From Escherichia phage VpaE1_ev108, in the sequence record LR597658: DNA of 64,000 bases; one strand, given 5' to 3'. Below are positions 34,771 to 36,430 of this stretch, piece after piece (within the stretch, counting starts at the first letter, position 1; every line of letters begins with the position of its first letter). Made by a program: the position numbers and the translations under genes. Under the pieces are notes generated by a model, which was not told where the DNA came from, did no database searches, and worked only from the letters and a program-made list of their open reading frames with translations.

Positions 34771-34830
34771 CAGATTTTATAGCTTATTTGGCAGATTTTT
34801 TATAAGGCTACTGCCATCCTTCCATACATT

Positions 34831-34880
34831 ACCTTACCACACCTAACCATACCTAACCAAACTACACCATACAATACCTT
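34831..34880. repeat. phased pentanucleotide array, about 10 units ACCNN (minus strand NNGGT)
   Basis: ACCtt ACCac ACCta ACCat ACCta ACCaa ACtac ACCat ACaat ACCtt; G-free on plus strand. Confidence 0.8.
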
Positions 34881-34881
34881 G

Positions 34882-34945
34882 TTAAAAGACCCTTTTAAAG
34901 ACCTTTTAAAAAGGTAAGTCTCATTTTAATGTAGCTGAGACTAAC
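34882..34945. repeat. conserved module TTAAAAGACCCTtTTTAAAGACCTTTTAAAAAGG plus hairpin gtctca/tgagac (copy 1)
   Basis: module recurs at 35014-35046 and 36272-36305; hairpin recurs at 36310-36333. Confidence 0.75.
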
Positions 34946-35010
34946 TACCCACACCAGACCCTACCTTACCACACCAGACCTCACCCTACCCCACCATACC
35001 GTATACTACC
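34941..35010. repeat. phased pentanucleotide array, about 14 units NNNCC
   Basis: ctaac taccc acacc agacc ctacc ttacc acacc agacc tcacc ctacc ccacc atacc gtata ctacc; contains 10-mer acaccagacc twice. Confidence 0.8.
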
Positions 35011-35013
35011 TCA

Positions 35014-35046
35014 TTAAAAGACCCTGTTTAAAGACCTTTTAAAAAG
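35014..35046. repeat. conserved module copy 2
   Basis: ttaaaagaccctgtttaaagaccttttaaaaagg. Confidence 0.75.
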
Positions 35047-35066
35047 GAGCCTCCGAAGAGGCTGCC
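35040..35066 (-). terminator. rho-independent terminator for 35075..35515
   Basis: minus strand gcagcctc-ttcg-gaggctcc followed by ttttt. Confidence 0.65.
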
Positions 35067-35074
35067 TAGTCAAC

Positions 35075-35515
35075 TTAGAAAGGTTTTCTACGTTGCTTGT
35101 TAATGTTAGCTTTCATAGCAGCTAAATGGTTTTGCTGTTCAATCAGTCGTGAACGTTCTTGATGACTAAGTGCCATAGTGTTCACATTCTCAATTGCTTG
35201 AGTGGCTTGCTTTAAAGCACGACCAATCTTACCAGACATTTTGCGTTTTGCAATAGTTGCTTGATGCTTAGGTTCAACCAAACGATAACCAACACCCATT
35301 GAAGCAACCAGATAAATCTTCTCTTCTTTAAGAAGTTTCTCAATAAACTTCTCAAGTCGGTTTAGACGTGTAAGTGCATAAGCCTTCATTTCATCTTCGT
35401 ACTTAACAATGTCACCTTGATAAGTTGGCTTCACAATACCTAAGAAGGTGTCCATCTCGGAATGTGATACAGTGTCACCGTAACTAAACTTTGCTGCTAA
35501 TGCTTTTGTATTCAT
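35075..35515 (-). CDS. hypothetical protein
   Basis: 146-aa ORF; basic C-terminus. Confidence 0.65.
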   Translation of the reverse strand: MNTKALAAKFSYGDTVSHSEMDTFLGIVKPTYQGDIVKYEDEMKAYALTRLNRLEKFIEKLLKEEKIYLVASMGVGYRLVEPKHQATIAKRKMSGKIGRALKQATQAIENVNTMALSHQERSRLIEQQNHLAAMKANINKQRRKPF

Positions 35516-35517
35516 AA

Positions 35518-36120
35518 TTAAACGTTACCTTCTGAAATAACTTCTACAGAAAAACGACCAAAGCGTGGACGCCAATCACCTACACCACAAAGGTTACCAG
35601 CATTTTCCAGAACCATCAGGAGTTCTTCTTTGGTAATTTGTTCTTCATCGAACATCAAACCGAACTCTACAGACCAGTCACGGAAGATTGGACGGTAGCT
35701 CATAACTCGTGCTGTACCAATCTTAACAGACTTAGCATAGATAAAGTCTGGGTTCTTAGCAAGTTCTTGTGGGTTTGCTGGACAGTTCTTGATAGTCATC
35801 GGGAAGACTACATCTGTCAGCATAATGGCTCGGTCAATTACCTTACCAAGTTTGTTGAGTTTTGCACCAGACTTGATGCAAGCCTCAATCATCTCACCGT
35901 TCATAACAAAACCTAGCTGCTCATCGTAGTAACAAGAAGTTACCAGTTGGCTTTCTGCTAAGAGCGCATAGTCTTCGTCAGTCTTTTTACGTTTACTGGA
36001 CAGAGACTTGTGATACTTCGTCAGAGGGTTTAGTGGGTCTGACAGCGTATCTGCGTGGCTCAGGAAAGGACGAGTACCAGTGATTTTGATATTTAACAGT
36101 TTCATAGCATTTAGCTCCAC
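35518..36120 (-). CDS. hypothetical protein
   Basis: 200-aa ORF with RBS ggag. Confidence 0.65.
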
Positions 36121-36202
36121 ACTTTAGTTGATTGTTAAGTTGTTTGTAAAGAACCCTCAACAGAAGACTCTTTAGAAACTTGGTAGATTTTTAACGTGGC
36201 TA

Positions 36203-36270
36203 CTACCATCCACCCATACTTTACCTAACCAAGCCGAACATCACACAACCAGACCGAGCCGCACCCCGCC
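36203..36270. repeat. phased pentanucleotide array (NNNCC)
   Basis: ttacc taacc aagcc gaaca tcaca caacc agacc gagcc gcacc ccgcc. Confidence 0.75.
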
Positions 36271-36271
36271 T

Positions 36272-36337
36272 TATTAAAAGACCCTCTTTAAAGACCTTTT
36301 AAAAAGGTAAGTCTCATTTTAATGTAGCTGAGACTAA
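36272..36337. repeat. conserved module copy 3 plus hairpin
   Basis: ttaaaagaccctctttaaagaccttttaaaaagg then gtaagtctcattttaatgtagctgagactaac. Confidence 0.75.
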
Positions 36338-36340
36338 CTA

Positions 36341-36430
36341 CCCATACCCTACTTTACCTTACCGTACAGTACTTTACCCGACCACACCGGACAATACTTA
36401 ACCCTACCTCACCCGACCGGACATCACTTA
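36341..36430. repeat. phased pentanucleotide array, about 18 units AC(C)NN
   Basis: ACCct ACttt ACCtt ACCgt ACagt ACttt ACCcg ACCac ACCgg ACaat ACtta ACCct ACCtc ACCcg ACCgg ACatc ACtta. Confidence 0.75.

Follow-up and report, generated by a model that had tools for sequence, protein, structure and literature searches.

The DNA analysed here (the window) is a stretch of 64,000 nt from Escherichia phage VpaE1_ev108 (LR597658), a Felix O1/wV8-like myovirus with a wV8/Alf5-like Felixounavirus backbone. Between the DNA ligase gene and a gp93-like gene, in a part of the window where all genes are on the minus strand, two small genes are flanked by intergenic regions of 377 bp and ~550 bp, which an earlier note made from the sequence alone had singled out for their phased pentamer tracts. 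We identified the two genes as vipr and vap1, and the pentamer arrays together with them almost certainly make up a VIPR (Viral Interference Programmable Repeat) locus, of type II and belonging to the SUSP1 clade. On the minus strand the elements run in the order promoter, leader hairpin, guide RNA gene vrRNA-B1, TACCTTTTT with a repeated module, vrRNA-B2, vipr and vap1, and then intrinsic terminator, module, vrRNA-A1, module, vrRNA-A2 and the promoter of the next gene (Table 1). The 2.4 kb around the arrays are 93-94% identical to wV8, Alf5, bumzen and ~230 other phage records.

Table 1. Elements of the VIPR locus, with positions in the window
Feature	Position	Strand	Description
Sigma-70-type promoter	36491..36518	-	TTGACA, 16-nt spacer, TATACT; 11/12 consensus; 5´ of first vrRNA
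Leader hairpin	36422..36460	-	CATCACTTAA...TTAAGTGATG; encloses degenerate module copy; L-type 5´ flank of first vrRNA
Tract B1	36428..36344	-	17 units, 16 if the first unit is assigned to the leader hairpin
vrRNA-B1	36310..36423	-	16 GGY-NN units (36423..36344) + 34-nt type-a pseudoknot tail (36343..36310)
Module copy	36271..36300	-	AAAAGGTCTTTAAAGAGGGTCTTTTAATAA; directly 5´ of vrRNA-B2; after TACCTTTTT (36301-36309)
Tract B2	36270..36216	-	11 units
vrRNA-B2	36182..36270	-	11 GGY-NN units (36270..36216) + type-b1 tail (36215..36182); immediately upstream of vipr
vipr	35518..36105	-	195 aa; 193/195 identical to PDB 36pp
vap1	35075..35515	-	VIPR accessory gene, 146 aa; SUSP1 protein 98% identical, same position
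Intrinsic terminator	35041..35063	-	AGCCTCTTCGGAGGCT then CCTTTTT; after vap1
Module copy	35011..35040	-	Directly 5´ of vrRNA-A1
Tract A1	35010..34951	-	12 units
vrRNA-A1	34917..35010	-	12 units (35010..34951; one broken, TATAC) + type-a tail (34950..34917)
Module copy	34879..34907	-	Directly 5´ of vrRNA-A2; after TACCTTTTT (34908-34916)
Tract A2	34878..34824	-	11 units
vrRNA-A2	34790..34878	-	11 units (34878..34824) + type-b2 pseudoknot tail (34823..34790)

The identification of vipr comes from a PDB sequence search, in which the product matched the entry "SUSP1 Vipr protein" (36pp) at an E value of 1e-128. In the listed open reading frame (35518-36120) an upstream GTG is taken as start, but the likely start is the ATG at 36105, which follows a GGAG ribosome-binding site. 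All nine RNA and DNA contact residues that were checked (H17, K33, E71, M72, R138, C173, D177, W178 and R179) are present, and position 175 is V both here and in the PDB chain (T175 in the text of the preprints cited below). The protein falls into PHROG 4652 (unknown function) and had no Pfam match. The only other gene of the cassette, vap1, has its closely similar counterpart at the same position in SUSP1 (L128); it belongs to PHROG 5926 (unknown function), with no match in Pfam or the PDB. The vipr-vap1 cassette is 95-98% identical in 117 phage records of Felixounavirus type, where both genes are called "hypothetical protein" wherever features are listed. We also noted that positions 90326-92716 of GU169904.1 ("Staphylococcus phage SA1", 147 kb) are of Felixounavirus type, with 93% identity to the window and with vipr and vap1 among their genes; this record is probably a chimeric or contaminated assembly.

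The VIPR system, its protein, RNA code, structure and targets have already been described in two bioRxiv preprints of April-June 2026 (10.64898/2026.04.26.720920 and 10.64898/2026.04.26.720927), and the locus reported here involves no new principle. According to these preprints, Vipr is a minimal RAMP of ~20 kDa with an RRM core, a glycine-rich loop and a thumb (PDB 36pp), and is encoded with an accessory gene, vap, with vrRNA genes flanking; the name vap1 and its enhancing role come from the same source. Each vrRNA consists of 9-16 YNNGG repeats, in which GGY is conserved and NN is hypervariable, followed by an invariant 3´ tail that forms a pseudoknot in the SUSP1 clade. In cryo-EM structures one Vipr protomer binds per repeat with the GGY flipped out and held by defined residues, and Vipr assembles into a helical filament. 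Guide and target are related by a 1-nt skip rule, whereby a guide GGYNN-GGYNN recognises double-stranded DNA of the form xNN-xNN, the resulting gapped R-loop triplex represses transcription, and reprogramming of the NN retargets silencing. For SUSP1 there is experimental evidence for expression of ~100-nt vrRNAs, for their co-purification with Vipr and for silencing of transcription from matching DNA by the complex; natural targets in the SUSP1 clade converge on an E. coli satellite phage, with the skipped base tending to fall on the codon wobble position (10.64898/2026.04.26.720920; 10.64898/2026.04.26.720927).

In the window, the guide portions of the four vrRNAs are minus-strand tracts of in-phase G-G-Y-N-N pentamers, each of 11-17 units. 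The earlier note had correctly recognised four phased tracts, but its figure of about 55 units was too high, the count being 50-51. When both strands of the window were scanned for in-phase GG or GGT, with a threshold of 6 units in 10, only these four places were detected, all on the minus strand; an equivalent scan for in-phase GT gave one further, marginal minus-strand stretch (40356-40419, 6/10). In-phase GT was observed in 8/11 to 17/17 units, with shuffle maxima of 7-11 in 1000 dinucleotide-preserving shuffles per tract; in no tract did a shuffle reach the observed count, and the period-5 power of each tract was above that of every shuffle. The shuffle comparison had been named beforehand as a refuting test, and the periodicity survives it. 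Plus-strand G, first described as almost absent, makes up 0-13% of the tracts, compared with 21% over the window.

The repeat code was examined in 53 unique guides drawn from ~23 relatives, in which protein identity of the flanking genes is mostly 85-100%. Guide lengths are multiples of 5 in 51 of the 53, with 10-19 units and a mode of 11-12. Repeat positions 1-3 hold 1.05, 1.69 and 1.41 bits of information and positions 4 and 5 only 0.07 and 0.09 bits; thus GGY is conserved and NN is nearly information-free, being hypervariable between phages that are 93-99% identical elsewhere, while the 5´ flanks and tails stay conserved among the relatives. As a correction to the pentamer positions originally reported as conserved, the best kept are G2 and Y3 (GT or GC), Y3 at 98%; at position 1, G is found in only 78% of units, T in 14% and A in 7%. 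Strict GGY accounts for ~74% of units and NGY for 96%.

This pattern bears on another suggestion of the earlier note, that the G-rich strand forms G-quadruplexes, which as DNA or as RNA might act as a structural regulator. The GG-N3-GG spacing could allow quadruplexes of two tetrads, and there is a resemblance to the thrombin aptamer GGTTGGTGTGGTTGG. Selection, however, falls on G2-Y3 and not on GG runs: the first G, which is T or A in 21% of units, is less conserved than the pyrimidine, of which a quadruplex has no need, and lengths are kept to multiples of 5 rather than to four G-runs. Since each GGY is also seen flipped out in the published cryo-EM structures, with its guanines held individually by protein, we regard quadruplex formation as a highly improbable explanation. 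The argument in the earlier note that 5-bp phasing places dinucleotides on alternating helix faces is inapplicable to an element that acts as single-stranded RNA.

Each of the four pentamer runs is followed on its 3´ side by a 34-nt H-type pseudoknot tail, which is supported by covariation. Four tail families, one of them from the E. coli satellite described below, share interleaved helices formed by columns 3-6/17-20 and 10-13/30-33. All eight tested pairs are paired in all seven distinct tails, with compensatory double changes in 6/8, values that were reached by 0/500 shuffles; in slid controls 32-48% were paired. The gtctca/tgagac hairpin noticed at the outset is present twice and corresponds to the second stem of the pseudoknot.

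The module, described in the earlier note as a 34-bp element in three copies, was confirmed in that number and occurs only in this locus; a fourth, degenerate copy was found inside the leader hairpin, 5´ of vrRNA-B1. It invariably has a U-run immediately before it and an array immediately 3´ of it, and is kept as the M-type 5´ flank in relatives. Because the satellite's own vrRNA has no module, the module is unlikely to be a Vipr handle. As a sigma-70 promoter the module is a weak match and was not accepted: the best candidate, TTAAAA-N18-TTTAAT, lacks the conserved A at -10 position 2 and was not called by the scan. We infer that the module is specific to this locus and serves expression of the next vrRNA, either as its promoter or as a signal for its processing. 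The consensus-like promoter in front of the leader hairpin, judged from its sequence, probably drives vrRNA-B1, vrRNA-B2 and the vipr-vap1 operon. A minus-strand promoter at this place had been predicted earlier and plausibly transcribes the arrays, though not as the 5´ leader then envisaged, the arrays being guide RNAs. In Felix O1 the only vrRNA has the same promoter and leader in front of it, and the L-type leader flank is kept directly 5´ of many relatives' arrays.

We then compared the guides with possible targets, using as criterion a match of at least 80% of NN under the 1-nt-skip rule. With the locus as BLAST query, vrRNA-like tails were detected in 114 of 5,426 complete E. coli genomes; one of the 114 is E. 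coli SCU-387 (L141, from NZ_CP051688.1), in which the target satellite is an integrated element of ~12 kb. This is the satellite named in the preprint, as identified by its tape measure (WP_096972664.1) and baseplate (WP_096972663.1) proteins. vrRNA-B1 matches 26/32 NN (81%) at L141 22430-22480, inside the gene for WP_096946079.1, where the base skipped falls on codon position 3; this score was reached by 0/500 guide permutations. vrRNA-A2 matches 18/22 NN (82%) at L141 22217-22249 (5/500 permutations reach this score), a site at the promoter of the same gene, where it covers the -10 region and the start of transcription. At least two guides, B1 and A2, thus point at one satellite gene, in its coding sequence and its promoter, respectively. 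The product WP_096946079.1 had no known family. Across relatives, 19/54 guides reach at least 80% on the satellite, compared with 0/54 on the reversed satellite and 0/54 on 12 kb of E. coli core genes. Within the window no self-targeting of at least 80% was detected (best 1-nt-skip matches 0.62-0.75), and with skips of 0, 2 or 3 nt only the guides' own genes, at skip 3, matched at 75% or more.

These matches also separate the arrays from another class of RNA with a 5-nt period. The B. subtilis TRAP protein is a closed 11-mer ring that acts in attenuation control and binds RNA with 11 (G/U)AG-NN repeats, whose spacers carry no information. By analogy, a ring protein could bind the 11-12 GGU repeats here, with the RNA controlling downstream expression or titrating a host factor and serving as no guide. 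The two are alike in having a conserved trinucleotide every 5 nt, ~11 units and one subunit of a homo-oligomer per unit, the last being true of Vipr according to the preprints. Yet Vipr forms a helical filament and not a ring, reprogramming of the NN retargets silencing, and the NN, which under the TRAP scheme would be mere spacers, match the satellite under the 1-nt skip in numbers that no control approached. We consider a TRAP-like attenuation or sponge RNA to be very unlikely.

Taken with the preprint findings, the target matches suggest how the VIPR locus of this phage would work. Vipr protomers would bind each vrRNA one per repeat, sequestering each GGY and exposing the NN, and the exposed NN would pair with double-stranded DNA of the form xNN-xNN-..., one base being skipped per repeat, such that the gapped R-loop triplex would block transcription of the target. 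B1 would pair within the coding sequence of the satellite gene, passing over the wobble base, and A2 would sit over the promoter of the same gene; the two guides are predicted from these matches to silence it. Expression, RNA ends and silencing by the four vrRNAs we infer from homology to SUSP1. The proposal that the arrays bind a phage regulator therefore holds to the extent that a phage protein, Vipr, is the binder, but it is the RNA copy that is bound and not a DNA operator or iterons.

Most likely, this phage uses its VIPR system to silence one of its parasites. The product of window 21188-21955 (plus strand) shares 82% identity with the satellite baseplate protein, and that of window 18939-20603 (plus strand) shares 29% with the satellite tape-measure protein. 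The baseplate likeness fits a helper-parasite relationship, and the two together suggest that the phage is a helper that the satellite mimics or exploits. The satellite has a vrRNA of its own, at L141 ~19990-20085 on the minus strand of that locus, with a TTGACG-N17-TATAAT promoter, a ~49-nt leader and 10 GGY-NN units; it ends in a b-type pseudoknot tail with compensatory changes, followed by a terminator. The annotation of the SCU-387 satellite lists no vipr gene, and satellite-encoded vrRNAs presumably work in trans with Vipr from another phage. In E. coli O111 strain 11128 there is a satellite remnant only, with a vrRNA-like piece.

Several observations weigh against the identification of the locus as a VIPR system with these targets. 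About a quarter of the units deviate from strict GGY, and vrRNA-A1 has a broken unit. The B1 match passes 80% only without the first pseudo-unit, which overlaps the leader hairpin (26/34 with it), and a BLAST of the idealised B1 target against the 5,426 complete E. coli genomes detected no satellite variant better than that of SCU-387. For vrRNA-A1 the best satellite match was 18/24 (75%, L141 20482-20517), below the 80% criterion and reached by 8/500 permutations, and for vrRNA-B2 it was 14/22 (64%). Promoter and terminator calls here are consensus matches only, and the VIPR mechanism rests on two preprints without peer review. With respect to the broken unit, TATAC, it is present too in the wV8 copy of the same guide, which suggests that Vipr may tolerate some non-GGY units. 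Exact scans of IMG/VR for perfect targets of B2 and A1 gave 0 hits each.

A search of IMG/VR for seven consecutive GGT-NN units, unbiased as to protein, provided a separate view of the association between arrays and Vipr. Besides plain pentamer microsatellites, the scan returned dozens of unrelated contigs with degenerate arrays, each of 8-24 units and often following one another in long series. Clustering of the open reading frames in the 56 sequences with degenerate arrays (55 contigs and the window) detected a Vipr homologue in 34, the window included, where the cluster member is 35518-36120. The homologue is ~200 aa and lies on the array strand in all but two spurious overlapping open reading frames, and in these 34 sequences the arrays begin 1-75 nt past its stop codon or just upstream. 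Some of the runs are very long, with 12 GGT-NN arrays in 1.2 kb beside the Vipr homologue in contig L022 (2216-3405) and 17 in 1.2 kb in L100 (3232-4393). Long runs by a Vipr homologue were also seen in the unrelated contigs L012 (4601-5048), L011, L019 and L093. As the spacers between arrays are only 10-26 nt, these long runs must be processed from one precursor.

True pentamer microsatellites among the scan matches, and the position of our arrays on either side of a two-gene cassette that is missing from Felix O1, might be taken to mean that the arrays are functionless, either microsatellites made by slippage or recombination scars at the cassette boundaries. Slippage products would not resemble these units, which are diverse, with two positions nearly information-free and three constrained; the 5´ flanks are conserved, the tails covary and the guides match targets. 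We give this explanation next to no credence.

The link to Vipr in unrelated phages also argues against a replication origin or iteron array, an origin having been among the earlier proposals. The pentamers would then be DNA sites for an initiator, or the promoter and G-rich strand would form a priming R-loop. Priming of this kind has precedents in T4 oriF/oriG and ColE1, and the region does lie in the replication module, between ligase and nucleotide-metabolism genes, with a strong predicted promoter preceding a G-rich, C-poor non-template strand. However, cumulative GC skew tracks gene orientation only, with no inflection at 35-36 kb, Felix O1 does without most of the region, retaining one array, and the NN are hypervariable between phages otherwise nearly identical, the opposite of what is seen for iterons. 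An origin is thus a most improbable function for the arrays.

Several further ideas predated the identification of Vipr. Primase recognises short sites (GGGTC and TGGTC for T7; pentamer primers pppACNNN for T4), and a dense array of such sites was considered, as were an R-loop origin, Chi-like or RecA-preferred GT-rich recombination hotspots, subterminal transposase-binding repeats and a rut site for Rho on an antisense RNA. All were dropped: given the 99% match to the solved Vipr and the target matches, the pre-identification hypotheses, the TRAP-like ring-binding RNA included, are unnecessary.

Relatives carry two to four vrRNAs in varying order, and this variation in number and order indicates that guides are shuffled among phages. 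In Felix O1 (L142, NC_005282.1) the region is reduced to a 282-bp spacer between ligase and gp87, with one array kept and the rest gone. The remaining vrRNA gene, at L142 3740-3900 on the minus strand (record ~57740-57900), appears intact: its 11 units and b2 pseudoknot tail come after a promoter and leader hairpin like those of the window. In the 86-kb Felix O1 genome, tblastn detected no Vipr or Vap1 homologue (best E 0.36). Similarly, at least three other relatives (L124, L127 and L133) keep 1-2 vrRNAs with no vipr-vap1 cassette at this locus. GGY fidelity is 0.69 in these orphan vrRNAs and 0.74 in vipr-linked ones, values too similar for the orphans to be called decaying. It is conceivable, though we think it rather unlikely, that orphans act in trans with the Vipr of a co-infecting relative or as decoys, and that the module is a promoter or processing element devoted to vrRNAs, perhaps under the control of Vap1; so understood, the module could make each guide a separate expression unit. 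The orphan vrRNAs and the role of the module may be new relative to the accessible text of the preprints.

Compared with the SUSP1 type II VIPR locus, the one described here has nearly the same proteins (Vipr 99% and Vap1 98% identical), the same site between DNA ligase and a gp93-like gene, and the same GGY-NN code, tail pseudoknot families, 5´ flanks and satellite target. It differs in guide content, in the arrangement of the vrRNAs (two upstream and two downstream, compared with one upstream and three downstream in SUSP1) and in its backbone, which is of the wV8/Alf5-like Felixounavirus type (93-94% identical) and not that of SUSP1. The comparison with Class 1 CRISPR-Cas, in which Cas7 assembles on the crRNA, is drawn in the preprints: in both, a RAMP-fold protein polymerises on a guide RNA, a thumb flips bases out periodically and a conserved handle caps the variable guide. 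VIPR, however, is phage-encoded and silences rather than cleaves, has no CRISPR repeats, spacer acquisition genes or nuclease, and sequesters 3/5 of guide bases while skipping 1/3 of target bases, compared with one in six for CRISPR. TRF and inspection of repeats detected no identical direct repeats of CRISPR type (23-50 nt), and the neighbouring genes had no Cas families in Pfam or PHROGs.

In its arrangement the locus also recalls the PeSL cassettes of T4-like phages, in which promoter and stem-loop repeats flank shuffled genes. In both, repeated non-coding elements surround a small cassette of genes that some close relatives have and others lack, and the cassette could be excised by recombination between these repeats. 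The flanking repeats here, unlike those of PeSL cassettes, are guide-RNA genes, beyond promoter/terminator units.

For annotation, the gain is that vipr and vap1 can be named, four guide RNAs placed, and a satellite gene with its promoter proposed as target. VIPR is a newly reported mode of RNA-guided DNA recognition that has been proposed to be older than CRISPR, and the recognition of this locus from raw sequence means that the pentamer signature alone is diagnostic. A literature search of older Felix O1 and Salmonella-phage genome papers detected no mention of the pentamer arrays, and in the wV8 record only a 58-bp direct repeat, "DR_4", is annotated.

Finally, we noted other features in and around the locus. 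Rfam at gathering thresholds gave no match at 34.7-36.7 kb; the only RNAs reported were 24 tRNAs at 2.2-7.3 kb, which form a cluster of genes at 2263-7234 on the plus strand. Neither gp93 nor a 48-aa open reading frame between DNA ligase and the VIPR promoter (36525-36671, minus strand) had a Pfam match, and PHROGs gave "unknown function" only (PHROG 22006 for the latter). Because its sequence is largely hydrophobic, the 48-aa product may be a small membrane protein. A gene for an HTH_3 (Cro/C1-type) transcriptional regulator (33808-34137, minus strand) is found three genes downstream of the VIPR locus.

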